Below the pieces are notes generated by a model. It was not told the DNA's origin, did not search any database, and saw only the letters and a list, made by a program, of their open reading frames with translations. A DNA stretch of 24,776 nt from a virus. Its lineage: Duplodnaviria > Heunggongvirae > Uroviricota > Caudoviricetes. The stretch is from positions 1-24,776 of IMG/VR virus record IMGVR_UViG_2778261457_000006. One strand, 5' to 3'. Positions 1,547-23,768 of this stretch are shown piece after piece; the stretch's first letter is position 1; each line of letters starts with the position of its first letter. The translations under genes were made by a program, and so were the position numbers.

Positions 1547-1731
1547 ACGCCACAATTCAAACGATACCAGAGCTTCTTATCCAGACACGAGGCAATCAGA
1601 CCGAAGTGGCGAGGATGCTTTCCTGCGCAAGAGGAACAGTGCTCAAGTACAACCGAGACAGCAAAGGCGAGCGTCACGTAATAGTTAACGGCGTCCTGAT
1701 GGTCAAACAGGGCAAAAGGGGAAGGCCATGA
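1543..1731 (+). CDS. ninH: NinH-like small HTH protein (62 aa)
   Basis: Translation ...TIPELLIQTRGNQTEVARMLSCARGTVLKYNRDSKGERHVIVNGVLMV... matches recalled lambda NinH (GNQTEVARRLKCSRGTVRKY). Confidence 0.8.
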   Translation: MNATIQTIPELLIQTRGNQTEVARMLSCARGTVLKYNRDSKGERHVIVNGVLMVKQGKRGRP

Positions 1732-2351
1732 GACTCGAAAGCGTAGCTAAATTTCATTCGCCAAAAAGCCCGATGATGAGCGACTCACCACGGGCTACGG
1801 CTTCTGACTCTCTTTCCGGTACTGATGTGATGGCTGCTATGGGGATGGCGCAATCACAAGCCGGATTCGGAATGGCTGCATTCTGCGGTAAGCATGAACT
1901 CAGCCAGAACGACAAACAAAAGGCTATCAACTATCTGATGCAATTTGCACACAAGGTATCGGGGAAATACCGTGGCGTGGCAAAGCTCGAAGGAAATACT
2001 AAGGCAAAGGTGCTGCAAGTGCTCGCAACATTCGCTTATGCGGATTATTGCCGTAGTGCCGCGACGCCGGGCGCAAGATGCAGAGATTGCCACGGTACAG
2101 GCCGTGCGGTTGATATCGCCAAAACAGAGCAGTGGGGGAGAGTTGTCGAGAAAGAGTGCGGAAGATGCAAAGGCGTCGGCTATTCCAGGATGCCAGCAAG
2201 CGCCGCATATCGCGCTGTAACGATGCTAATCCCAAACCTTACCCAACCCACCTGGTCACGCACTGTTAAGCCGCTGTATGACGCTCTGGTGGTGCAATGC
2301 CACAAGGAAGAGTCAATTGCAGACAACATTTTGAATGCGGTCACACGTTAG
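1728..2351 (+). CDS. Q: late gene antiterminator Q (207 aa), lambda type
   Basis: Full-length translation MRLESVAKFHSPKSPMMSDSPRATASDSL...CRDCHGTGRAVD...CGRCKGVGY... matches recalled lambda Q (zinc-finger Cys motifs, same length). Confidence 0.93.
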   Translation: MRLESVAKFHSPKSPMMSDSPRATASDSLSGTDVMAAMGMAQSQAGFGMAAFCGKHELSQNDKQKAINYLMQFAHKVSGKYRGVAKLEGNTKAKVLQVLATFAYADYCRSAATPGARCRDCHGTGRAVDIAKTEQWGRVVEKECGRCKGVGYSRMPASAAYRAVTMLIPNLTQPTWSRTVKPLYDALVVQCHKEESIADNILNAVTR

Positions 2352-3023: not shown

Positions 3024-3347
3024 ATGAAGATGCCAGAAAAACATGACCTGTTAGCCGCCATTCTCGCGGCAAAGGAACAAGGCATCGGGGCAATCCTTGC
3101 GTTTGCAATGGCGTACCTTCGCGGCAGATATAATGGCGGTGCGTTTACAAAAACAGTAATCGACGCAACGATGTGCGCCATTATCGCCTGGTTCATTCGT
3201 GACCTTCTCGACTTCGCCGGACTAAGTAGCAATCTCGCTTATATAACGAGCGTGTTCATCGGCTACATCGGTACTGACTCGATTGGTTCGCTTATCAAAC
3301 GCTTCGCTGCTAAAAAAGCCGGAGTAGAAGATGGTGGAAATCAATAA
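3024..3347 (+). CDS. S: holin S (107 aa) with dual-start motif Met1-Lys2-Met3
   Basis: Translation [34 protein letters not shown]... matches recalled lambda S107/S105. ATG AAG ATG dual start with an upstream cccc..gggg hairpin (sdi-like) at about 3003-3016. Confidence 0.93.
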
Positions 3348-3807
3348 TCAACGTAAGGCGTTCCTCGATATGCTGGCGTGGTCAGAGGGAACTGATAATG
3401 GACGGCAGAAAACCAGAAATCATGGTTATGACGTCATTGTAGGCGGAGAGCTATTCACTGATTACTCCGATCACCCTCGCAAACTTGTCACGCTAAACCC
3501 AAAACTCAAATCAACAGCTGCAGGTCGTTACCAGCTTCTTTCCCGTTGGTGGGATGCCTACCGCAAGCAGCTTGGCCTGAAAGACTTCTCTCCCAAAAGC
3601 CAGGACGCTGTTGCGCTGCAGCAGATTAAGGAGCGTGGCGCTTTACCGATGATTGATCGTGGTGATATTCGTCAGGCTATCGACCGTTGCAGCAATATCT
3701 GGGCTTCATTGCCGGGAGCTGGTTATGGTCAGTTCGAGCATAAGGCCGACAGTCTGATTTCAAAATTCAAAGAAGCAGGCGGAACGGTCAGAGAGATTGA
3801 GGTATGA
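3331..3807 (+). CDS. R: endolysin R (lytic transglycosylase, 158 aa)
   Basis: Translation [49 protein letters not shown]... matches recalled lambda R. Overlaps the S end as in lambda. Confidence 0.93.
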
Positions 3808-4262
3808 GCAGAGTAACCGCGATTATCTCCGCTCTGGTTATCTGCATCATCGTTTGCCTGTCATGGGCTGTTAATCATTACCGTGATAATGCCATCGCCT
3901 ACAAAGAACAGCGTGATAAAAAAGTCAGTGAGCTGAAGCAGGCGACCGCCACCATCTCTGACATGCAGCAGCGTCAGCGTGATGTTGCAGAACTTGACGC
4001 CAGATACACAAAGGAGCTTGCTGATGCTAACGCGACTATCGAAAGTCTCCGTGCTGATGTTTCTGCTGGTCGTAAGCGCCTGCAAGTCGCCGCCACCTGT
4101 GCAAAGTCAACGACCGGAGCCAGCGGCATGGGCGATGGAGAAAGCCCAAGACTTACAGCAGATGCTGAACTCAATTATTACCGTCTCCGAAGTGGAATCG
4201 ACAGGATAACCGCGCAGGTTAACTACTTGCAGGAATACATCAGGACTCAGTGCCTGAAATAA
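3804..4262 (+). CDS. Rz: spanin inner-membrane subunit Rz (152 aa)
   Basis: N-terminus [31 protein letters not shown]... matches recalled lambda Rz (N-terminal TM helix, then coiled coil). Central and C-terminal parts diverge from lambda. Confidence 0.88.
4024..4209 (+). CDS. Rz1: spanin outer-membrane lipoprotein Rz1 (about 61 aa), embedded in Rz in the +1 frame
   Basis: +1-frame ORF inside Rz. AAGGAG (4011-4016) 7 nt before ATG 4024. Signal peptide [20 protein letters not shown] with lipobox VSAC, then Pro-rich mature region [14 protein letters not shown]. The ORF track's 3979 start is probably too far upstream. Confidence 0.7.
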
Positions 4263-4465: not shown

Positions 4466-5008
4466 ATGAATTATCCAACTATCGTTGACGGCATTGATTT
4501 CAAAGAACTGGTTTTTATTACCAACAATGACCCTGTCACCGATTCATTTATGGTGGCGAAAGCATTTCGTAAGCGACATGACAACGTTGTGCGTGATGTA
4601 GAAAGAACTATCGCTGCTTGTCCTGAAGAGTTTGATACAAAACTCAATTTTGAGGTTTGCTATAAAAACAATGAGTTACAGAATGGTAAGCCACAAAAAT
4701 TCTATCGGCTACGTAAGGATGGGTTGATGCTTTTGGTTATGTCCTACACCAAAAAAGAAGCAATGCGTATCAAAATTGCTTACATCAACGCATTCAACTG
4801 GATGTACGCCATGCTTCAGGTTGGTCATCGTCAATTTGAAGAAGAGAGAAATGCCGTAATGCTGGAGTACATGAAAGAGAAGGATGTTGCCAGCATGTCA
4901 GGCCGCCTGCTTAATCGCTGGGGAAAAATTAAGAAGCCTCAGCTACTGGCGAGAATTGAACGCCTTGAACAGCACGGGCAAACCGTAATCCCCGGACTCA
5001 CCAATTAA
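4466..5008 (+). CDS. rha: Rha-family phage regulatory protein (180 aa)
   Basis: N-terminal ...ELVFITNNDPVTDSFMVAKAFRKRHDNVVRDVE... is the recalled Rha-family signature (F-KRHDNVLRDI). Confidence 0.75.
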   Translation: MNYPTIVDGIDFKELVFITNNDPVTDSFMVAKAFRKRHDNVVRDVERTIAACPEEFDTKLNFEVCYKNNELQNGKPQKFYRLRKDGLMLLVMSYTKKEAMRIKIAYINAFNWMYAMLQVGHRQFEEERNAVMLEYMKEKDVASMSGRLLNRWGKIKKPQLLARIERLEQHGQTVIPGLTN

Positions 5009-5913: not shown

Positions 5914-6408
5914 ATGAATATGGCAGCACCAAAGGGCAACCGATTTTGGGAGGCCCGCAGTAGTCATGGGCGAAACCCTAAATTCGAATCGCCTGAGGCG
6001 CTGTGGGCTGCTTGTTGTGAATACTTCGAGTGGGTGGAAACTAACCCGCTATGGGAGATGAAGGCGTTCTCGTATCAGGGTGAAGTGATACAAGAGCCTA
6101 TCGCCAAGATGCGAGCGATGACCATCACCGGACTCACTCTGTTCATTGATGTGACGCTTGAAACATGGCGCACATATCGCCTGCGAGAAGATTTATCTGA
6201 AGTCGTTACGCGAGCAGAGCAGGTCATCTACGACCAGAAATTCTCTGGCGCAGCCGCTGACCTTCTCAACGCTAATATCATCGCCCGTGATTTGGGCCTC
6301 AAAGAGCAGTCGCAAGTTGAAGACGTGACACCTGATAAGGGAGATCGCGATAAGCGACGCTCTCGTATCAAGGAGCTATTCAACCGTGGAACTGGACGCG
6401 ATTCTTGA
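5914..6408 (+). CDS. terminase small subunit (P22 gp3-like, 164 aa; alternative start at 5920)
   Basis: Translation ...[46 protein letters not shown]... matches recalled P22 gp3. 3' end overlaps terL. Confidence 0.88.
6188..6209 (+). other. candidate P22-type pac site (AAGATTTATCTGAAGTCGTTAC) inside terS
   Basis: The sequence gaagatttatctgaagtcgttacgcg lies near codon 92 of terS and matches my recollection of the P22 pac site, which lies inside gene 3. Recalled from memory, not verified. Confidence 0.5.
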
Positions 6409-16497: not shown

Positions 16498-17886
16498 ATG
16501 GCTACTTGGCAAGGAACAAACGGCGGATTGTTGGCTGGTATCGGCGGCGTCAACTCAAACGCTCCGAGCGTAAATGACATCGGCAATACGCTTCAGCTTA
16601 TCAGGCAGAACAATGATATTGAGCGTTCAGGCGCTAACAATGTTGGGCTGACTGCTTTGCAAGGCCTTTCAGGTATTGCGGGGGTGTTTCAGCAGGAAAA
16701 GCAGGCTCAGCGGCAGAAAGAATTTCAGCAGGCATACGCTAATGCTTATGCGTCTGGTGATCGCGGTGCTTTGCGTCAGTTGGCTACTCAATATCCAGAC
16801 CAGATTGAATCTGTTCGCAAAGGCATGGGATTCATTGATGAAGACCAGCGCAATTCTATCGGCACCTTAGCGGCTGGCGCACGCCTTGCTGCCTCGTCTC
16901 CAGAAGCAATGCAATCATGGCTGCAAAGCAACGCCAAGGAACTGACTCGCGTCGGTGTTGACCCTAACAACGTTGCTCAGATGTATCAGCAGAATCCTTC
17001 AGGGTTTGGTGAGTTTGTTGATCACCTTGGGATGGCTGCTCTCGGTCCGATTGACTACTTCAATGTTCAGGACAAGATGGCTGGTCGTGAGATTGACCGA
17101 GGCAGGCTGGCAGAGACAATCCGCAGCAATCAGGCTGGCGAGGCGCTAACAGCACGAGGCCAGAACATCACGATGCGCGGTCAGGACTTATCTGCTTCTA
17201 CTGCGCGACGCGGGCAGGATTTGGCAATGCAGCGAGCGTCAACAAGAGGAACCGCTGGGAATGATGAGCGTACAGTTCAGTTATCAGATGGCAGAACTGT
17301 AACGGTAGGCGGGAAACTTCACGGCGCTGGGGCTAATGCGTTCTACGAAGGCATCGACAACGAGGGGAATATGGTTCGCGTTCCTGCCAGTTCAATCGCA
17401 GCGCCTGCAACATCGTCTTCATCAGCACAAAACTATGCCATGAAGAAGGATATCGACGCGATCGCAAATGCAGACGCTTCTGCTCTCGATTTCATGACAG
17501 GAATGACAGGCGGTGCAGGTAATCCAGCAATTGGTGCTGATGTTCGCAGCCGATTAACAGGAAAAGAGCAGCGCCAGTTATATAACTCAGCACAACGTAT
17601 TCAGGGCAGAATGCAGAATCAGGGTGTGGCGGCAGCAAGGGACATGGGTGCCAGTGGTATTAACACCGTTGCAGAAGCGAAGATGTATTTTCAGGGGATG
17701 CCGCAGGTTGACTATTCAAGCCCGGAGGCTATGCAGCAGTCGATTCGTGAGATTCAGGAATACACCAACAATTACAACCAACAATATAACGTTAATGTTG
17801 GTAAATCTCAGCGGCAGCAATCTCAACCTGCACAGGTATCACAGCCAGCAGCCAGCAGTAACTTTTCTTCACTATGGGGTGATTAA
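16498..17886 (+). CDS. ejection protein (P22 gp20-like, 462 aa)
   Basis: Size, Gly/Ala/Gln-rich composition and synteny match P22 gp20. Confidence 0.8.
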
Positions 17887-19883
17887 TGGCTAAAGCATGG
17901 AAAGATGTTATCGCCTCTCCACAGTATCAGGCGTTAGCACCAGAACAAAAAGCGCAGGCTCAGGAGCAATACTTCAATGAAGTCGTTGCCCCGCAAGCCG
18001 GAGAAAATGCAGAGCAGGCTAAGCAAGCTTTCTATGCTGCCTATCCATTGCCATCTGTGCAGCCAGTGGAGACACAGCAACCAGTAGCACAGCAACAACC
18101 ACAGCAAAGTGGATTTATGTCTGATCTTGGTGAAGCAGTAAAAGAGACTGGTCGCGGACTGGTGCAGGCTGGCGTGAACGTGGCAAACATACCTGCATCA
18201 GTTGCCGATGCTGTAACAAGCGCTGCGGCTTGGGCTGGCGGTAAACTCGGTATTGGCGATGGTACATATCAACCAGCACCACGAGTAACAACGCAGGGAT
18301 TAGAGCAGGACTTTGGCCTTCAGCAAGGCGCGCTGACTCCACAAACGACAGAGGGAAGGGTATTTGCTGAAGCATTGCCTTACCTCACTCCTGCTGGCGT
18401 TGAGAGAGCGTCAGCACAGGCACCAACACTTGCTGGTCGAATTGCTCAGGGGGCAACTCGCCTTCTCGCTGAAAACACAGTTGGATCACTTGCTGCAAAT
18501 AGTGAGAAAGATGATGCGGAAGCACTCGCCACCGATTTAGGCGTTGGTGTGCTGGCTGGCGGTGCTATTAACGCTGCCGGACGTGGATTAGGTGCTGCTT
18601 ATCGTGGCGTTCGTGGTGCTATTGCGCCAGAAGCGCAGCAGGCTATCAGATTTGCAGAGCGTGAAGGAGTTCCTCTGCACACCACAGACCTGTTACAACC
18701 CACTTCCCGCGTCGGGAAAATGGCGCAGACGACAGCGGAAAATATCCCCCTGGCTGGCACAAGCGGAATGAGAGCAACGCAACAGGAAGCGAGAAGCCAG
18801 TTGGTGCAGAGATTTGCTGATAAATTCGGTGAGTATGATCCAGCTGTTGTTATTGACAGCCTTAAAGCGAAAACATCAGGAATTCGTCGTGCTGCAGGTA
18901 ATCGACTGGAGCAGGTTCAGAATGCTATGGCAGGAGTAAACATTCAGCCTGCACGAGCAATTCAGCAGATTGATACAGAAATATCTAACCTGCAGAAGCT
19001 TGGTAAGGTCGCTGATAACGAGACTATTTCAAAACTTCAGTCCTATCGTGATGAGCTTGTTCGCAATGCTGGTCCTGATGGTCCGGTCAATCTGGATTTG
19101 AAGCAATTAAGCGATCTGCGCAGCCAGTTCAGAATGGACGTGAAGGGTGAGCGACCAGTGTTACCAAACCGTTCCGATGCTGCCATTCAGCGCGTTTACA
19201 AGGCAATGACCGACGATATCAATGGTGCCATTGGTCAGAATCTTGGCAACGATACTCTCCGTAAATATCAGCAGGCCAATGCCGTCTACGCTGACGAAGC
19301 AGCAAAACTAAAGAATACCAGGCTGAAGAATGTTCTCATGAAAGGCGATCTGACGCCGGAAGTTGTCAACAACATGCTATTCAGCAAGAACAAATCGGAA
19401 ATTAAGACTCTGTATAACTCAGTTGGTCGTGTTGGCAGGGCGCAAATGCGCAATGGCATCATTGGAAAGGCGATGGAGAAATCAGGTGGTTCCCCTGACC
19501 AGTTCCTTCGGCAGCTTAACATCCTGCAAAACCAGACTGGCATCACATTTAAAGGTCAGGAAGCCGCTTATCTGAAAGGATTGAAAAACTACCTGCAATC
19601 CACGCAGCAGGCTGCAAAAGCGGCAGTAACAACACCAACAGGGCAGCAAACCATCCCGTTCATTATCGGGTATGGGACGGCAATGAACCCGGCGACAACT
19701 GGCGCAGCGGTAAGCTACGGACTTCTTACTCGCGCCTATGAGAGCGAGCTATTCAGAAATGCAATGCTCCGAATGGCAAACACCCCACGCGGATCAACAG
19801 CCTTTGAGAAAGCAATGCAGCAGGCACAAAAGGCAATTAACGCTCTGACGCAGGGGGCTAAGTCTGATGCGTTGTCAGAATAG
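17886..19883 (+). CDS. ejection protein (P22 gp16-like, 665 aa)
   Basis: Size and synteny (last gene of the ejection-protein block) match P22 gp16. Confidence 0.8.
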   Translation: MAKAWKDVIASPQYQALAPEQKAQAQEQYFNEVVAPQAGENAEQAKQAFYAAYPLPSVQPVETQQPVAQQQPQQSGFMSDLGEAVKETGRGLVQAGVNVANIPASVADAVTSAAAWAGGKLGIGDGTYQPAPRVTTQGLEQDFGLQQGALTPQTTEGRVFAEALPYLTPAGVERASAQAPTLAGRIAQGATRLLAENTVGSLAANSEKDDAEALATDLGVGVLAGGAINAAGRGLGAAYRGVRGAIAPEAQQAIRFAEREGVPLHTTDLLQPTSRVGKMAQTTAENIPLAGTSGMRATQQEARSQLVQRFADKFGEYDPAVVIDSLKAKTSGIRRAAGNRLEQVQNAMAGVNIQPARAIQQIDTEISNLQKLGKVADNETISKLQSYRDELVRNAGPDGPVNLDLKQLSDLRSQFRMDVKGERPVLPNRSDAAIQRVYKAMTDDINGAIGQNLGNDTLRKYQQANAVYADEAAKLKNTRLKNVLMKGDLTPEVVNNMLFSKNKSEIKTLYNSVGRVGRAQMRNGIIGKAMEKSGGSPDQFLRQLNILQNQTGITFKGQEAAYLKGLKNYLQSTQQAAKAAVTTPTGQQTIPFIIGYGTAMNPATTGAAVSYGLLTRAYESELFRNAMLRMANTPRGSTAFEKAMQQAQKAINALTQGAKSDALSE

Positions 19884-19972
19884 CTTTGCAAACACCAGGA
19901 AAGTGCAAAAACCAAATATGTAGAATGCAATGTTCATCATATCTTTTTGCATAAATCCTCCGTAATGGATGG

Positions 19973-20233
19973 TTAGTTGCTGTCTTTTTTATATAGCTCC
20001 TTGAGCGTATCAAAGACAATTTTCTTAACCATATCAGATTGTTGTTCTGCCATACGCTCTGCATCGTCAATGTAAACTGATGCAGAGCTTTGTTTATCCA
20101 ATGATTCTTCAATCGCTGCAATTATCTCTGAGTTCAGCGACCTGTTATTCATCTTCGCGCGCTGCTTAATTTTCGCGTGGAGTTCATGCGGAAGTCTCAA
20201 GTGAAACTGCGCCTCGTCGTATTTGCTGTACAT
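19973..20233 (-). CDS. mnt: Mnt-like ribbon-helix-helix repressor (about 86 aa; upstream alternative start at 20266)
   Basis: Minus-strand translation MYSKYDEAQFHLRLPHELHAKIKQRAKMNNRSLNSEIIAAIEESLDK...YIDDAERMAEQQSDMVKKIVFDTLKELYKKDSN aligns with recalled P22 Mnt along its length. GAGG lies 8 nt upstream of the internal ATG. Confidence 0.8.
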   Translation of the reverse strand: MYSKYDEAQFHLRLPHELHAKIKQRAKMNNRSLNSEIIAAIEESLDKQSSASVYIDDAERMAEQQSDMVKKIVFDTLKELYKKDSN

Positions 20234-20306
20234 CCTTGATGCCTCACCAGTTGGGTGGAATGGCATCGTAACCTACTGGATAAATACTCAATAGTACCAT
20301 TTCGGT

Positions 20307-20329
20307 ATGCAATCACATCATGGTTGCAT
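20307..20329. promoter_or_regulatory. 23-bp palindrome ATGCAATCACATCATGGTTGCAT in the mnt-tailspike divergent intergenic region (candidate operator)
   Basis: 6-bp perfect inverted arms atgcaa/ttgcat separated by 11 bp, between the two divergent start codons. Function is inferred. Confidence 0.35.
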
Positions 20330-20354
20330 CATATCATTCGTCTGGAGCAATGAA

Positions 20355-22286
20355 ATGTCAGATATCACCGCAAATGTTGTAGTGAGCATGCCTTCGCAAC
20401 TCTTCACTATGGCGCGTTCTTTTAAAGCCGTAGCCAATGGCAAAATTTATATCGGTAAAATTGACACTGACCCGGTAAACCCTGAAAACCAGATTCAGGT
20501 TTATGTGGAGAACGAAGACGGCTCTCACGTTCCTGTTTCGCAACCAATAATCATTAACGCTGCTGGTTATCCGGTATATAACGGACAGATTGCCAAGTTC
20601 GTAACTGTGCAAGGCCATTCTATGGCTGTTTATGATGCGTACGGGGCGCAGCAGTTCTATTTTCCGAATGTTCTGAAGTACGACCCGGATCAGTTCACAA
20701 ATCGCCTAGCCGATGTTTATGGCTCAACGCTGGTTGGAGGAGCGTATTTTTCTGATATAAGAACTTATTCTGAGAAATCAAAAAAAATATATTGCCTTGG
20801 GAGGTCAGGGTTATTTGATGGCGGAGAAGGATGGTTTTATTTAGATGATACAGACACTACGAGCGATGATGATGATGGAATCATTTTGGTTGGGGCTTCC
20901 GGTAGGAGATGGAAGAGGGTAATAGAAGGGAGCTACAAACCCGAATGGTGGGGAGCAGATCCTACTGACACCGTTGATTGCCATGCAGCATTTACAAAAT
21001 GCATCGCTGCTGCACGGGGTAAAGAAATTAGTTTAAGTGGTAAATATAAATTTTCAAAACCACTTGTTATTGACTTTAATGATGAGGCGAGCCTGAAAAT
21101 AACAGGTACTGGCTCTTATAATCATATGGCAAATGCCAAAACTAAAAACCTTTGCTATTTAAATTTTGATTCTATACCGCAAAATTCGCGTGCCATTACT
21201 TTTAAGGGAGTAAGAGGTCTGGTTTTAGAAGATTTTCATGTATCGCATCGTGCCGGTGGTAGTTCGCTTTCAGTCGCTTTATGGCTTACTAAAATAGATG
21301 ATTTTAGATTAACTGGTCTTACTGTGGATTCCGATACTGGACCTGGGGGGCAAGGTATCCGCTTTGGGGAATCTAATGGCACAGACTGTGCTTTCATGGG
21401 GAATATCTCTCATTGCAAAGTGTGGATGCATGGAGGTGGCCCTTCTTTCTGTGTGCAACCGGCATGTACTTCATTGCTGTTTGAAAACTGTTATGGCATT
21501 GGTGGTTATTTCTATTTCCAAAATTGTATCTATTGCTCTATGAACACTTGTGCAAGTGAAGGAAGTGAAGTTTCTGGGTATGGCTATATACTGCATTCTG
21601 TTGAAGGGTTTACTGCTATCAACTGCGCAGGGGAAGGAAATAAGTTAGGTGTTTTTTATCTATCTACAGGGTGTTCTCAAGTAGTTCTTACCTCCCCATA
21701 TGGCGCAGGGAATGGAAATCTTACTGGAGACATAGATGGAGCCCTGGTTAAGTTGGATGGCACATCCGGTGCCAATAGTAATATTTTGATAGAAAACCCA
21801 GTATCACATTCGCAGGTAGGTAATGTGACATCTGATATTAATGCTGTAGGCGTCAATGGGCACACAGAAATAACTAATGTGTATTCAGAAAAACTAACAA
21901 AAGGAATAGCTGGTTCTGATTCCTGGATTCAGAACTATTTAACAATTACAGGAGATTTGAGTTGTCGCGACTTTATACCTGGGATCCCTGGTTGGACAGC
22001 TCCAGGAGGTGCGTTAATTGAAGGAAAATTTACAAGAAATAATAAGATTGTATCTTTTTCGGTTAAAGTGTCGCCAACAAACTATCTTTCATGTGAACAT
22101 GGTCTATCAAAAACGACACTTCCGTCATTTGGAGGGCTGTTATATGGAGGTGCAGCACAGGTTTCGAATACTGCTGGTACGAACTATGGATCTGCGATGA
22201 TCGATACTAACGGTGTGGTTTGGATGCCAAACATAACCAGTACGTCAAATGCAATACTCATAAGTGGGTCTGTGTTAACAAACTAA
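20355..22286 (+). CDS. tailspike protein: P22-type N-terminal head-binding domain fused to a different beta-helix-like receptor-binding/depolymerase domain (643 aa)
   Basis: TGGAG 7 nt before ATG 20355. The first ~115 aa ([13 protein letters not shown]...[63 protein letters not shown]) match recalled P22 gp9. The remainder is unrelated to P22, AT-rich and Cys-rich. Confidence 0.88.
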
Positions 22287-22377: not shown

Positions 22378-23532
22378 TCATGCTTTTCCGTCAATGAAAT
22401 CAGCCCACCACTGCATCATTTCTCTGCGCTTATCCAGATACTGAGCATGGTTGTAAATCCCGCGCACAGATCCACCGTTGGCATGCGCCAGTTGAACCTC
22501 AATCGCGTCAGCAGGCCATTCGTGCTCGTTCATAATCGTGCTGAATTCATGCCTGAATCCGTGTCCGCTTTCCAGACCCTCATATCCGATTTGTTTGATC
22601 ACAAGTAGTACAGCGTTCTCGCAAATTGGCTTCTTCTTATCGTTGCGCCCGGCAAAAACATACTCTGATACTGGTTTAGTGATTGAGCTTAGCGTAGTGA
22701 GAAGTTCAACCACCTGGTCTGACATCGGGACCACATGAATTTTGCGTCCCTTCATCACACTGGCGTCGATGGTGATAATCCTGTTTTCAAAATCGACGTT
22801 CTTCCATTGCATGGAGCGAAGCTCTTTCGTTCTTAGGGCTGTGTAGCGTAAAACTTTGGTCGCAATGAGCGATACGATACTTCCTGAAAATGTTGCCAGT
22901 GCTTTGTTGAATGCAGGGATCTGGTCTGCTGGAAGAAACGGGAAGTTCTTCTTGCGGTATCCTTTCATGGCGTCTGCAAGGTCAGGTGCCGGGTTATATT
23001 TAGCCCTTCCGGTGACAATAGCGTAACGGAAAACCTCGCCGCATCTTCTGCGGGCTTTGTTGGCTCGTTCCATTGCACCGCGATCTTCAAATCTGCGGAT
23101 TACTTCCAGCAGTTGCATCGGCTCAATATCCTGAATCTCAAGACCGCCGATGATGGGTAAAATGTCGTCATCAAACATTTTGGCAAGCTCAGTTGCATAG
23201 CCTACTGACCATACTTGCTTCTTGTGCTCGTACCATTCCTTGTAAATTGCACTAAAGGAATTGTTGTTAGACGAAGCCTTTTTCGCTTTTACCGGATCGA
23301 TGCCAACCGAGATGTCTTTCCTCGCGGTCCATGCTTTATCTCTTGCCTCCTGCAAAGTCATTAGCGGATATTTTCCTACGGTCAGGATTTTCTCCTTACC
23401 GTCAATCTTGTAGCGAAGCTGCCATACCTTTTTCCCTGACACAGGGACATAAAGGTACAGGCCATTACCATCGAGTAGGCGGTATGGTTTTTCTTTCGGC
23501 TTTGCTGCTTCAATCTGCTTAACGGTGAGCAT
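22378..23532 (-). CDS. int: tyrosine integrase, P4 family (about 384 aa from ATG 23532; ORF extends to GTG 23568)
   Basis: N-terminus MLTVKQIEAAKPKEKPYRLLDGNGLYLYVPVSGKKVWQLRYKIDGKEK is the P4-type arm-binding domain. C-terminal ..GHGFRHEF.. and ..LAHANGGSVRGIYNHAQY.. carry the catalytic His/Arg/Tyr region. Resembles my recollection of E. coli K-12 IntS next to argW. Confidence 0.9.
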   Translation of the reverse strand: MLTVKQIEAAKPKEKPYRLLDGNGLYLYVPVSGKKVWQLRYKIDGKEKILTVGKYPLMTLQEARDKAWTARKDISVGIDPVKAKKASSNNNSFSAIYKEWYEHKKQVWSVGYATELAKMFDDDILPIIGGLEIQDIEPMQLLEVIRRFEDRGAMERANKARRRCGEVFRYAIVTGRAKYNPAPDLADAMKGYRKKNFPFLPADQIPAFNKALATFSGSIVSLIATKVLRYTALRTKELRSMQWKNVDFENRIITIDASVMKGRKIHVVPMSDQVVELLTTLSSITKPVSEYVFAGRNDKKKPICENAVLLVIKQIGYEGLESGHGFRHEFSTIMNEHEWPADAIEVQLAHANGGSVRGIYNHAQYLDKRREMMQWWADFIDGKA

Positions 23533-23693
23533 GGGTAAAAATCCGGTGGGTAAAATTATTTTATCCACTTTTTACCCGTCATGGAGTGCGGCTGTCAACG
23601 ATCTGACGCGAACCATTACGAACTGTGAATCTGCGGAAGGCTTGATATTCAGGGAATTTTGCGGACTGGTACGGATGGGAGCGAACTGATAAA

Positions 23694-23768
23694 TGGTGTC
23701 CCCTGCAGGAATCGAACCTGCAATTAGCCCTTAGGAGGGGCTCGTTATATCCATTTAACTAAGAGGAC
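23694..23768 (-). tRNA. argW: tRNA-Arg (anticodon CCT), host argW
   Basis: Reverse complement GTCCTCTTAGTTAAATGGATATAACGAGCCCCTCCTAAGGGCTAATTGCAGGTTCGATTCCTGCAGGGGACACCA folds as a canonical cloverleaf with anticodon loop CTCCTAA. Matches recalled E. coli argW. Confidence 0.9.

Follow-up and report, generated by a model that had tools for sequence, protein, structure and literature searches.

Gene content of the interval between the gp16 homologue and the tailspike gene

The window, meaning the whole 24,776 nt stretch of DNA analysed here, corresponds to the late half of a P22-like prophage of the Sf6/IME10/Sf101 type, associated with the tRNA-Arg(CCT)/yfdC site. Its relevant features are collected in Table 1. 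Between the gp16 homologue, labelled in related records as a DNA transfer or P22-gp16 family protein, and the tailspike gene, the only credible gene is a minus-strand Mnt-like ORF. The initial annotation had described it as an orphan ribbon-helix-helix (RHH) protein without arc or ant, divergent from the tailspike gene and starting about 120 bp from it. The Pfam, PDB and tblastn results bear this out, and the distance between the probable mnt start (ATG 20233) and the tailspike ATG (20355) is 121 bp. Late transcription must indeed pass antisense through mnt to reach the tailspike gene, as had been pointed out, with the same geometry as in P22.

Table 1. Features of the mnt cassette and its flanks, in window coordinates.
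Feature	Position	Strand	Basis or remark
gp16-homologue DNA ejection protein	17886..19883	+	ORF; final late-operon gene ahead of the mnt cassette
Left ATGCAA-N16-TTGCAT inverted-repeat element	19925..19952		3' of both gp16 and mnt
mnt, 86-aa Mnt-family repressor	19973..20233	-	Pfam and PDB matches; PGAP call; 49% identity to P22 Mnt
mnt Shine-Dalgarno GAGG	20242..20245	-	8 nt 5' of ATG 20233
Predicted Pmnt -10, TACGAT	20265..20270	-	aligns with annotated P22 Pmnt -10 TATCAT
Predicted Pmnt -35, TTGAGT	20286..20291	-	aligns with P22 Pmnt -35 TTGAGA
Predicted Mnt operator GTACCATTTCGGTAT, dyad GTACC-ATTTC-GGTAT	20294..20308		column-for-column alignment with annotated P22 Omnt
23-bp palindrome ATGCAATCACATCATGGTTGCAT	20307..20329	+	repeat search; 9-bp stem (one U.G pair), 5-nt loop, in tailspike leader
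Tailspike Shine-Dalgarno GGAG	20344..20347	+	read from sequence
Tailspike gene, P22-type N-terminal head-binding domain	20355..22286	+	Pfam PF09008 (Head_binding), E=2.2e-67

The 86-aa product is shown by homology to be a genuine Mnt-family repressor, with an N-terminal, Arc-like RHH domain, whose beta-strand reads Q-F-H-L-R-L, and a C-terminal Mnt tetramerisation helix. It matches the Pfam families Arc (PF03869, E=1.1e-14, residues 18-60 of the 97-aa ORF) and Repressor_Mnt (PF11423, E=3.3e-14), as well as the PDB entries 1MNT (E=5e-19) and 1QEY (E=1.7e-8); the last alignment spans residues 56-84, which identifies the tetramerisation helix as a sequence match. The third hallmark of the family, an operator dyad beside the gene's own promoter with specificity set by the beta-strand, is indicated by the comparative evidence given below. 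The longest mechanical ORF begins at ATG 20266 and would encode 97 aa; this codon lies within the predicted Pmnt -10, and the PGAP annotation corresponds to the 86-aa form. Phages L, SE1, Gally, VSe13 and JEP4 share the conserved mnt leader GAGGCATCA, which also recurs in other genera, and on the opposite side of the interval CTGGAGCA is conserved 5' of the tailspike genes of all phages compared.

No trace of the remaining immI genes is apparent. A search for remnants of arc and ant, and for ant nearby, had been suggested, and in the window, which covers the late prophage half, tblastn with P22 Arc gave no match even at E<=10, while the best match to P22 Ant (E=0.30) was scattered within other genes. 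Likewise, no sieA, orf59a, phage L orf62, KilA-type or Rha-type antirepressor was detected in the window by tblastn, and no sar or other Rfam family was found in 19500-20700 at E<=1. The sole Rha-type ORF of the window (4466-5008) lies, as in Sf101, between genes for lysis and packaging and has no operator nearby; among the product names of the complete Sf101 genome, judged by name and not by sequence search, none is called an antirepressor and one is a Rha-like regulator. Insertions of about 600 bp between mnt and tailspike, present in 13 loci, were considered as a hidden antirepressor and rejected, as they encode HNH_3+AP2 homing-endonuclease-like proteins.

The cassette is bracketed by the left inverted-repeat element and by the palindrome. 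The pattern ATGCAA-N8-20-TTGCAT occurs at these two sites only within the window, against an expected 0.10, and none of 100 shuffles reaches two. Interpretation of the pair as a target-site duplication left by insertion of mnt was rejected because Sf6 carries both elements, 38 bp apart, without an intervening mnt.

Candidate operator, promoters and specificity classes

When the loci are aligned on the mnt start, with P22 Omnt taken as annotated in BK000583, the P22 operator position coincides with AGACCACNGTGGTCT in L, SE1 and Gally and with GTACC-N5-GGTAY in the window, VSe13, JEP4 and the Buttiauxella, Serratia and Citrobacter contigs. The Mnt binding site is therefore likely to be GTACCATTTCGGTAT, at the exact Omnt position, and not the 23-bp palindrome. 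This predicted operator is centred at 20301, at roughly position -43 relative to the putative Pmnt start, and the tailspike ATG follows 54 bp 3' of the centre. The comparison of the palindrome with Omnt proposed in the initial annotation accordingly turned out against the palindrome, which occupies a different position.

The identity of the beta-strand is closely coupled to that of the operator. Among the loci sampled (the best 80 per scan), HFNFRM strands occur with GGTCCACNGTGGACC, always adjoining arc, QFNLRL strands with AGACCACNGTGGTCT, and QFHLRL strands, to which the window belongs, with GTACC-N5-GGTAY; no cross-class match was seen. The exact dyad is present in 96 of 108 distinct QFHLRL entries, and ten of the other 12 (13 loci shown) are single-base variants at the same position; the remaining exceptions are L019, whose right arm has decayed, and L029, which is truncated where the contig ends. 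HFNFRM is the strand in each of the 80 arc-bearing loci; 75 of them contain GGTCCACNGTGGAC exactly and five do not, the difference in one of these five being a single-base change. Particularly informative are L233 and L234, which have their C-terminal 60 residues in common with L224-L232 but carry a QFNLRL N-terminus; their operator is AGACCAC instead of GTACC, thus tracking the swapped N-terminus. In the window's class the operator half-sites are fixed and the central 5 bp vary (ATTTC, ATTTA, GTTTC, ATTTT, AATTT, AAAAT, ATTAT). At the level of sequence, this comparison shows that orphan Mnt proteins fall into predicted operator-specificity classes distinct from the ant-controlling P22 class.

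The window and the complete 38.7-kb Sf101 genome each contain a single dyad, and no second copy with up to one mismatch was found in either of them or in 40 kb of an E. coli lysogen. In IMG/VR, the 70 dyad matches without mnt represent unrelated coding or AT-rich sequence. A perfect palindrome flanked by TTGACA in L205 was also considered as an outside operator and set aside, the contig being unrelated and GC-rich, with no recognisable antirepressor.

A cis site found only at mnt's own promoter suggests that the target may lie elsewhere: the orphan Mnt might silence the antirepressor of superinfecting or co-resident phages with the same operator and thereby protect the prophage from induction. 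A precedent exists, as Susskind and Botstein reportedly described P22 prophage Mnt acting in trans on incoming genomes, and KilA- or Bro/Rha-type antirepressor genes do occur beside QFHLRL mnt in Serratia L014, Buttiauxella L019 and phage JEP4. These genes, however, are convergent with mnt and not on the operator side. Furthermore, a mnt-side sample of about 190 loci contains neither a QFHLRL or QFNLRL Mnt nor a GTACC-N5-GGTAY dyad adjoining arc or ant, the 80 arc-side loci have operators of the GGTCCAC type, and neither of the two mnt-like genes of CUS-3, which also carries ant, belongs to the QFHLRL class. The window beta-strand also differs from that of P22 at His6 and Asn8, which we take to be DNA-contacting residues, and cross-repression of a P22-type Pant is therefore unlikely. 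Trans-immunity is thus regarded as improbable.

Both elements of the predicted Pmnt have counterparts in all Mnt classes, the -10 as TAYSAT and the -35 by its TTG. With 15 nt, the spacer falls 2 nt short of that in VSe13, L and P22, and a weak promoter is therefore probable; it matches the consensus at 8 of 12 positions and is absent from the promoter-scan output. The best minus-strand match of the scan is instead CTGACA-17-AATGAT (20361-20333, 9/12), from which mnt could be expressed under negative autoregulation, with Mnt blocking its own synthesis and occluding polymerase at the tailspike start. This match is the best sigma-70-like one of the region, and its -10 is created by an 11-nt segment specific to the window-type leader. 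With this start, both the palindrome and the operator would fall within the mnt leader. Nevertheless, the region contains just two promoter-like matches, within the shuffle expectation of 1.2 +/- 1.1, and the candidate is missing where a leader of the L or VSe13 type serves the same or a similar Mnt. Its -35 simply reflects the conserved start codon region of the tailspike gene, read in reverse complement, and the Pmnt-like elements conserved in all classes are closer to mnt. Autoregulation from this promoter is consequently considered very unlikely.

On the opposite strand, the positions aligned with P22 Pant read ATGGCA and TAAATA or AATACT in the window, with at most 8/12 matches, and were not reported by the scan; the Pant sequence TTGACA-17-TATATT is confined to arc-bearing loci. 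A strong Pant overlapping Pmnt, with Omnt at its start site, as in immI, is thus absent from the window, and promoter scan and alignment leave Mnt with no convincing rightward promoter as a target.

The palindrome in the tailspike leader

The 23-bp palindrome noted in the initial annotation does exist at 20307-20329, but it is imperfect and no rarer than chance. Over the full arms, 8 of 11 positions pair, and the best form has a 5-nt loop between 9-nt arms that contain one mismatch. Inverted repeats of this quality number 27 in the window, compared to 18.6 (range 10-29) in Markov shuffles. The predicted RNA fold is more stable on the plus strand (-9.3 kcal/mol) than on the minus strand (-6.6 kcal/mol).

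The palindrome had been regarded as a possible shared operator of Mnt, controlling both mnt and the tailspike gene. In its favour, the 121-bp region between the two genes contains this inverted repeat, which has 2 bp in common with the predicted operator and is retained in 58 of 75 window-type loci. Against this, it is not at the Omnt position, and its arms (ATGCAATCA) do not resemble the half-sites of any Mnt class. Seven loci with six distinct upstream sequences (L024, L078, L042, L053, L075, L077, L169) lack the palindrome and carry a GC-rich hairpin instead, although their Mnt proteins are 97-99% identical and the GTACC...GGTAT dyad is kept. The right arm, TTGCAT, is part of a tailspike-leader motif in P22, L and Sf6 regardless of mnt. 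Moreover, most substitutions preserve pairing as plus-strand RNA (U.G, G.U) and not the dyad symmetry of the DNA. Taken together with the chance frequency of equally good palindromes, these observations make an operator function of the palindrome most unlikely.

In the other P22-like phages a covarying GC-rich hairpin is present at the same position of the tailspike leader, where a leader hairpin was defined as a stem-loop located about 15-25 nt 5' of the tailspike Shine-Dalgarno whose plus-strand pairing is kept by compensatory changes. For this hairpin, with stems registered by hand, 90.5% of the cells are paired, eight cells show double changes and none of 500 shuffles reaches the score. 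The covariation signal for the AT-rich palindrome is weak: 96.6% of the cells are paired, a percentage attained by 18 of 500 shuffles, and there is a single double change (G-C to U-A in L011). Four variant cells are unpaired (L066, L088 and two in L011). The palindrome probably forms a hairpin in the RNA of late or tailspike transcripts. Its interpretation as an intrinsic terminator was rejected because the weak, A+T-rich stem is followed by CAUAUCAUUCGU, with no U run; no terminator-like site was found in 19700-20500.

Maintenance of mnt, possible role and relation to known systems

The initial annotation had left two options, a remnant of immI or a repressor repurposed for autoregulation or tailspike control. 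That mnt is a functionless leftover of a degraded immI, merely not yet lost, would agree with the disappearance of arc, ant and sar, the decay of Pant and the lack of the whole cassette in Sf6. A few broken copies are also known, namely L089, truncated at 31 aa, and Citrobacter L015, which ends after 4 aa and has a mutated operator, and in the single assay performed, deleting mnt from the mnt-only prophage Gally had no effect on survival in macrophages (PMC9928086). These points are opposed by evidence of strong purifying selection. The dN/dS of the RHH domain is 0.08-0.10 (relative to VSe13 and to Escherichia sp. E1V33, locus L011), and 83 of 85 homologues are intact. In addition, the operator, the Shine-Dalgarno and the Pmnt -10 are retained across Escherichia, Salmonella, Buttiauxella, Serratia and Citrobacter while the flanks diverge, and the N-terminus and operator were exchanged together in L233 and L234. 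All sampled QFNLRL or QFHLRL loci have the mnt-only layout, the module is present in 139 of 5426 complete E. coli genomes (about 2.6%) as well as in IME10 and Sf101, and transcription of mnt in Gally is strong, rising 40-fold inside macrophages (PMC9928086). The gene is not decaying and looks functional by these comparative measures, and a remnant is held to be highly improbable. In view of the low dN/dS, the intact copies and the operator retained across genera, repurposing is the better reading.

We therefore consider it fairly probable that the locus is an intact mnt-only ant moron, consisting of mnt, a Pmnt-like promoter and an operator in front of the tailspike gene, with the palindrome as a separate element. 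Of the P22 immI region, only Mnt with its promoter and operator would be left here, immediately 5' of the tailspike gene. Transcription of mnt would proceed on the minus strand from TTGAGT-15-TACGAT, with a start placed by comparison near 20258. The operator lies about 43 bp upstream of this start, so that bound Mnt, by analogy with P22, should not shut off its own promoter; by the same analogy, it would block transcription initiating at, or moving rightward across, 20294-20308. The traffic blocked in the lysogen could be residual Pant-like initiation or read-through into the tailspike gene, and since no convincing rightward promoter is present, a gate role would rest on read-through. The strong P22 Pant having apparently decayed, no antirepressor circuit would be left for Mnt to control. 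The palindrome may be the local AT-rich version of the P22-like leader hairpin, most likely acting as plus-strand RNA in stability, processing or attenuation.

A broader proposal, advanced as a tentative possibility, is that orphan Mnt cassettes are a stable regulatory module and not antirepressor leftovers, gating, from a site immediately 5' of the tailspike gene, the prophage-state or stress-induced transcription of that gene and of the prophage right end. If true, tailspike and right-end transcription in the lysogen would be under the control of the orphan Mnt. At least two private classes (QFNLRL/AGACCAC and QFHLRL/GTACC) exist that were never found with arc or ant in the samples. In Gally inside macrophages, the tailspike-containing right end is induced 6-40-fold, independently of the structural genes (PMC9928086), and this co-induction with mnt is a hint in the same direction.

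The present re-analysis names a specific 15-bp candidate operator and a candidate promoter for a repressor of debated purpose (PMC8022706) and finds the orphan mnt to be under selection. The question of remnant or new function is thereby reduced to a small set of direct experiments, and the natural pairs of RHH beta-strand and operator can be used to study DNA-recognition specificity.

With respect to known systems, the window shares with P22 immI (mnt - Pmnt/Pant, Oarc, Omnt - arc - sar - ant, between genes 16 and 9) the slot and the orientation of mnt, the protein family with its RHH domain and tetramerisation helix, the aligned operator position beside the Pmnt -35 and the conserved Pmnt -10. 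It differs from P22 by the absence of arc, ant, sar, sieA and orf59a, by the decayed Pant -35 and -10, by its beta-strand and operator (QFHLRL with GTACC-N5-GGTAT, against HFNFRM with GGTCCACGGTGGACC) and by the operator-to-tailspike distance (47 bp, against about 1.3 kb). None of the elements that complete a P22-type immI (arc, ant, sar and a strong Pant) is present. As in L and SE1, mnt is the sole immI gene between the homologues of genes 16 and 9 and is oriented opposite to the late operon.

The orphan-mnt arrangement is ordinary and already in print: a mnt-only ant moron was described for ST64T and ST104 (PMC2629481), and for the orphan mnt of phage L the choice between a new function and a remnant was posed as an open question (PMC8022706; also PMC2629481). 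Like the window, the Salmonella phages ST64T, ST104, L and SE1 and the E. coli prophage Gally carry mnt alone beside the tailspike gene, in the layout mnt-operator-hairpin-tailspike. Their Mnt proteins, 48-60% identical to that of the window, are of the QFNLRL class, whose operator is AGACCACNGTGGTCT. Unlike the window, this group has at least one extra ORF between gp16 and mnt and a GC-rich leader hairpin in place of the AT-rich palindrome, and phage L has an annotated terminator after mnt.

Practically the identical module is carried by IME10 and Sf101, Lederbergvirus phages of E. coli/Shigella, and by the 139 complete E. coli genomes, with 97-98% nucleotide identity from the gp16 end through mnt and the intergenic region to the tailspike start. 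Their operator is identical to that of the window, as is the palindrome, apart from one G/A difference in IME10. No functional description of the IME10/Sf101-type mnt module was found; the mnt region is unannotated in IME10 and mislabelled in Sf101, where the 97-aa form appears as a "partition protein ATPase" or "chromosome segregation ATPase". Finally, the gene 13 - gene 14 junction of Sf6 has the same gp16 3' end and the same TGCAAT...TTGCAT pair before the tailspike gene but no ant moron, with 38 bp where the window has a 354-bp mnt-Pmnt-operator cassette.

The mnt gene and its surroundings

Gene order derived from ORFs, Pfam matches and synteny identifies the window as the late half of a P22-like prophage, and one annotated E. 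coli genome has this layout as well. The small minus-strand ORF matches Pfam Arc (E=1e-14) and Repressor_Mnt (E=3e-14) as well as solved P22 Mnt structures (PDB 1MNT, E=5e-19; 1QEY, the tetramerisation domain, E=2e-8), and its product is 49% identical to P22 Mnt. Upon tblastn of the 24.8-kb window with P22 Arc, Ant, SieA, orf59a and several other antirepressors, nothing besides mnt was recovered, and no Rfam match to sar was found. Together, these matches and negatives confirm the initial annotation of an orphan Mnt, divergent from the tailspike gene.

Features of the window, with the basis of each assignment where available
Feature	Position	Strand	Basis or remark
Antiterminator Q	1728-2351		
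Lysis-gene block	3024-4262		Synteny with annotated relatives
Rha-family ORF	4466-5008		Phage_pRha and ORF11CD3 domains; between lysis genes and small terminase
gp3 packaging protein	5914-6408		
Terminase, portal, scaffold, coat, ejection genes	Large ORFs after gp3		Synteny with annotated relatives
gp16 homologue	17886-19883		
First inverted-repeat element	19925-19952		ATGCAA-N8-20-TTGCAT
mnt	19973-20233	minus	Single small ORF between gp16 homologue and tailspike
Predicted Pmnt	20291-20286, 20270-20265	minus	TTGAGT-15-TACGAT
Predicted Mnt operator	20294-20308		GTACCATTTCGGTAT; aligned with P22 operator
Palindrome (second inverted-repeat element)	20307-20329		ATGCAA-N8-20-TTGCAT
Alternative mnt promoter	20361-20333		CTGACA-17-AATGAT
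Tailspike	20355-22286		Pfam Head_binding, E=2e-67
Integrase	22378-23568	minus	
tRNA-Arg(CCT)	23694-23768		Followed by yfdC

The mechanical ORF start is ATG 20266 (97 aa), which lies inside the predicted promoter -10; the second ATG, 20233, gives 86 aa, the form annotated by PGAP. The leader GAGGCATCA-N-ATG preceding ATG 20233 is kept in phages L, SE1 and Gally, whose genes begin at the corresponding codon. With this start the distance to the tailspike start is 121 bp, in agreement with the approximately 120 bp initially estimated. Mnt homologues are named 'partition protein ATPase' in RefSeq NC_027398 (Sf101, where the label 'chromosome segregation ATPase' is added), NC_011802 (SE1), NC_004348 (ST64T), NC_005841 (ST104) and others, and in PHROG 795; with these labels, the misannotation of an RHH repressor of 83-97 aa has evidently been propagated. 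Sf101 also has a Rha-like gene in the same slot as the Rha-family regulator of the window, near which no Mnt-type operator was found in the window.

Putative operator classes in the DNA preceding mnt

The pre-mnt DNA of P22, epsilon34, L, SE1, Gally, VSe13, JEP4 and the window was aligned with contigs of Pluralibacter, Pectobacterium, Phlomobacter, Buttiauxella, Serratia and Citrobacter. In this alignment each group has its own dyad in exactly the columns of the P22 operator GGTCCACGGTGGACC (annotated in BK000583), and the dyad type tracks the DNA-reading beta-strand of Mnt. No cross-class pair was found over all loci compared.

Mnt beta-strand classes and the aligned operators
Beta-strand	Operator	Source
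HFNFRM	GGTCCACNGTGGACC	P22, epsilon34, Pluralibacter, Pectobacterium
QFNFRM	ATATCACGGTGATAT	Phlomobacter
QFNLRL	AGACCACNGTGGTCT	L, SE1, Gally
QFHLRL	GTACC-N5-GGTA(T/C)	Window and relatives in five genera

The exact dyad is present in 96 of the 108 distinct QFHLRL entries; among the remaining 12 (displayed as 13 loci), 10 show a single-base variant at the same position, one Buttiauxella locus (L019) has a decayed right arm, and in L029 the operator is cut by the contig end. Between invariant arms the five central bases vary among A/T-rich strings, which is the signature of a two-half-site protein target. There is a single GTACC dyad in the window, and likewise a single one in the complete Sf101 genome (38.7 kb).

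A natural swap is provided by loci L233 and L234, whose Mnt shares its C-terminal 60 residues with that of L224-L232, but has the QFNLRL N-terminus; their operator is AGACCACCGTGGTCT and not GTACCATTTTGGTAC. The N-terminal 20 residues differ between the two sets, the operator being exchanged along with them, and the recombination joint of the chimeric proteins lies inside mnt. In established biochemical work, operator specificity is determined by the N-terminal residues of Arc and Mnt (Knight and Sauer 1989; Youderian et al. 1983). Among the best 80 Arc-encoding IMG/VR loci (L302-L381), Mnt is HFNFRM in every case and the P22-type operator is exact in 75, the other five departing from it (the one printed by a single-base change). 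Every sampled mnt-only locus (among L011-L301) is QFNLRL or QFHLRL with its own operator, a clean split from the arc-bearing loci.

Tailspike-leader hairpins and cassette boundaries

The 23-bp palindrome highlighted in the initial annotation is real (9-nt arms ATGCAATCA/TGGTTGCAT, one mismatch, 5-nt loop), and inverted repeats of this quality are as common in the window as expected by chance (27 observed vs 18.6 expected). It is missing, with the operator kept, from six distinct upstream sequences at seven loci (L024, L078, L042, L053, L075, L077, L169), which encode Mnt 97-99% identical to that of the window and carry ACCGTAGCCAYGCTGCGG instead. On these comparisons the palindrome is not tied to Mnt and appears to have been mis-assigned as an Mnt site; the description of the locus itself stands.

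GC-rich hairpins of the ACCGTAGCCAYGCTGCGG type also occur just upstream of P22 gene 9, duplicated around an insert of ~110 bp (3050-3075 and 3160-3185 of locus L005), and likewise in L, SE1, Gally, VSe13, JEP4 and other genera; the same duplication is seen in L042. Their consensus, CCGYAGC...GCTGYGG, lies just upstream of the tailspike Shine-Dalgarno sequence in P22-like phages of several genera (also L008, L219, L007, L004, L006 and others), with compensatory changes. The examined stretch of BK000583 carries no annotation for this hairpin, and no Rfam family covers it. For nine distinct versions of the stem, registered by hand and hence biased towards structure, 90.5% of cells are paired, 8 are double-change cells and 0 of 500 shuffles reach the observed value; every wobble is a G.U pair when read on the tailspike-sense strand.

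The AT-rich palindrome of the window sits at the same place. Its single mismatch is U.G on the plus strand; the pair is U-A in copies of the IME10 type and C-G in L076 and L095. Pairing on the plus strand survives in most variants, with C to U (L057, L083, L095) and A to G (L031), and Escherichia sp. E1V33 (L011) has a G-C to U-A double change. Four variant cells are unpaired (L066, L088, two in L011). The predicted fold is -9.3 kcal/mol for the plus strand vs -6.6 for the minus strand, and for the AT-rich version alone 18 of 500 shuffles reach the observed value, which is weak statistical support. We read the palindrome as a local form of the tailspike-leader hairpin that would act in the late transcript. 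A canonical terminator was rejected, as the scan returned no terminator-like site. Translation from the in-frame ATG at the beginning of the palindrome (20307) would lengthen the tailspike by 16 residues; this start is probably not used, since it is without a Shine-Dalgarno sequence and the extension is missing from other leader types.

The pattern ATGCAA-N8-20-TTGCAT occurs only twice in the window, flanking mnt (0.10 expected; 0 of 100 shuffles reach 2); both elements contain CATCATATC. In Sf6 (L003, 1720-1815) the two elements are merely 38 bp apart with no mnt between, so the mnt-Pmnt-operator cassette (~19953-20306) is a compact unit of 354 bp, inserted or deleted between two leader elements already in place. 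At 13 loci (L012, L020, L039, L041, L043, L044, L051, L052, L055, L077, L080, L086, L094) a 166-169-aa HNH_3+AP2 homing-endonuclease-like gene is inserted on the mnt strand directly after tailspike codon 5 (ATGTCAGATATCACC), a point corresponding to window 20370. Beyond it stands another tailspike start, this one complete, so that a fossil 5-codon start remains beside mnt and marks a module-exchange joint.

Promoters, proposed role and relation to known phages

P22 Pmnt (TTGAGA-17-TATCAT) aligns with a window promoter that is a weak prediction, because its 15-nt spacer is short and the promoter scan did not report it; all Mnt classes keep TAYSAT at the -10 and TTG in the -35. The operator centre (20301) is ~43 bp upstream of the predicted Pmnt start, compared with ~45 bp in P22, which would not be a position from which a repressor blocks Pmnt. 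Classical negative autoregulation would be implied by the alternative CTGACA-17-AATGAT promoter, but this is specific to the window leader type and within chance expectation.

The strong P22 Pant (TTGACA-17-TATATT, plus strand) is retained only where arc is present, and the homologous hexamers are degenerate in all mnt-only phages (ATGGCA and TAAATA or AATACT in the window). The antirepressor promoter has thus decayed, with the repressor, its promoter and its predicted operator kept. Taking this into account, the most economical idea for the target is that bound Mnt would block residual initiation or read-through into the tailspike gene, 47 bp downstream. A role in trans-immunity, in which Mnt would silence ant of superinfecting phages, has its appeal in principle. 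Against it, neither a QFHLRL or QFNLRL Mnt nor a GTACC dyad lies beside arc or ant among ~190 sampled loci, and the window beta-strand differs from that of P22 at two positions (P22 His6 and Asn8), which we take to be DNA-contacting residues.

KilA- or Bro-type antirepressor genes adjoin QFHLRL mnt in Serratia, Buttiauxella and phage JEP4, convergent with mnt and away from the operator. These KilA-N and Bro/Rha-type genes, on the mnt 3' side (L014, 1072-2908; L019, 4272-6735; L006, 2803-5285, respectively), possess their own repressor, and in L019 the genes facing the cassette are tail-fibre-like and belong to a phage that is not P22-like. In CUS-3 (L221, 953-1990) an HFNFRM and a PQVNLRL mnt-like gene stand in tandem, and the annotated 'bsq2 boundary sequence' contains an unannotated Arc-like ORF that lies upstream of ant.

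ORFs are intact in 83 of 85 homologues with the same beta-strand, the RHH domain being almost invariant, with dN/dS of 0.08 against the diverged copy of Salmonella phage VSe13 and 0.10 against that of Escherichia sp. E1V33. In macrophages, RNA-seq of Gally, a mnt-only E. coli prophage, shows mnt up 40-fold and the right end, including the tailspike, up 6-40-fold, many structural genes not being induced; mnt deletion gave no survival phenotype (PMC9928086). Intactness, low dN/dS and the Gally induction make a decaying remnant unlikely, so that of the two options initially offered, repurposing or an immI remnant, the latter is disfavoured. There is also evidence for orphan Mnt cassettes being self-contained modules that are maintained and have specificity classes of their own.

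Phages IME10 and Sf101 have the window module at 97% and 98% identity, unannotated in the former and mislabelled in the latter, and it is found at ≥80% coverage in 139 of 5426 complete E. coli genomes and in dozens of IMG/VR contigs. The analysis yields a concrete, testable map of predicted operator, promoter and hairpin for a locus of an already-known kind. ST64T, ST104 and Para1 retain mnt alone, Sf6 has nothing at that site, and the P22 moron is thought to influence the amount of late transcription reaching the tailspike gene, possibly via Mnt and Arc (PMC2629481); the interpretation as new function or remnant is in print, almost word for word, for phage L (PMC8022706).
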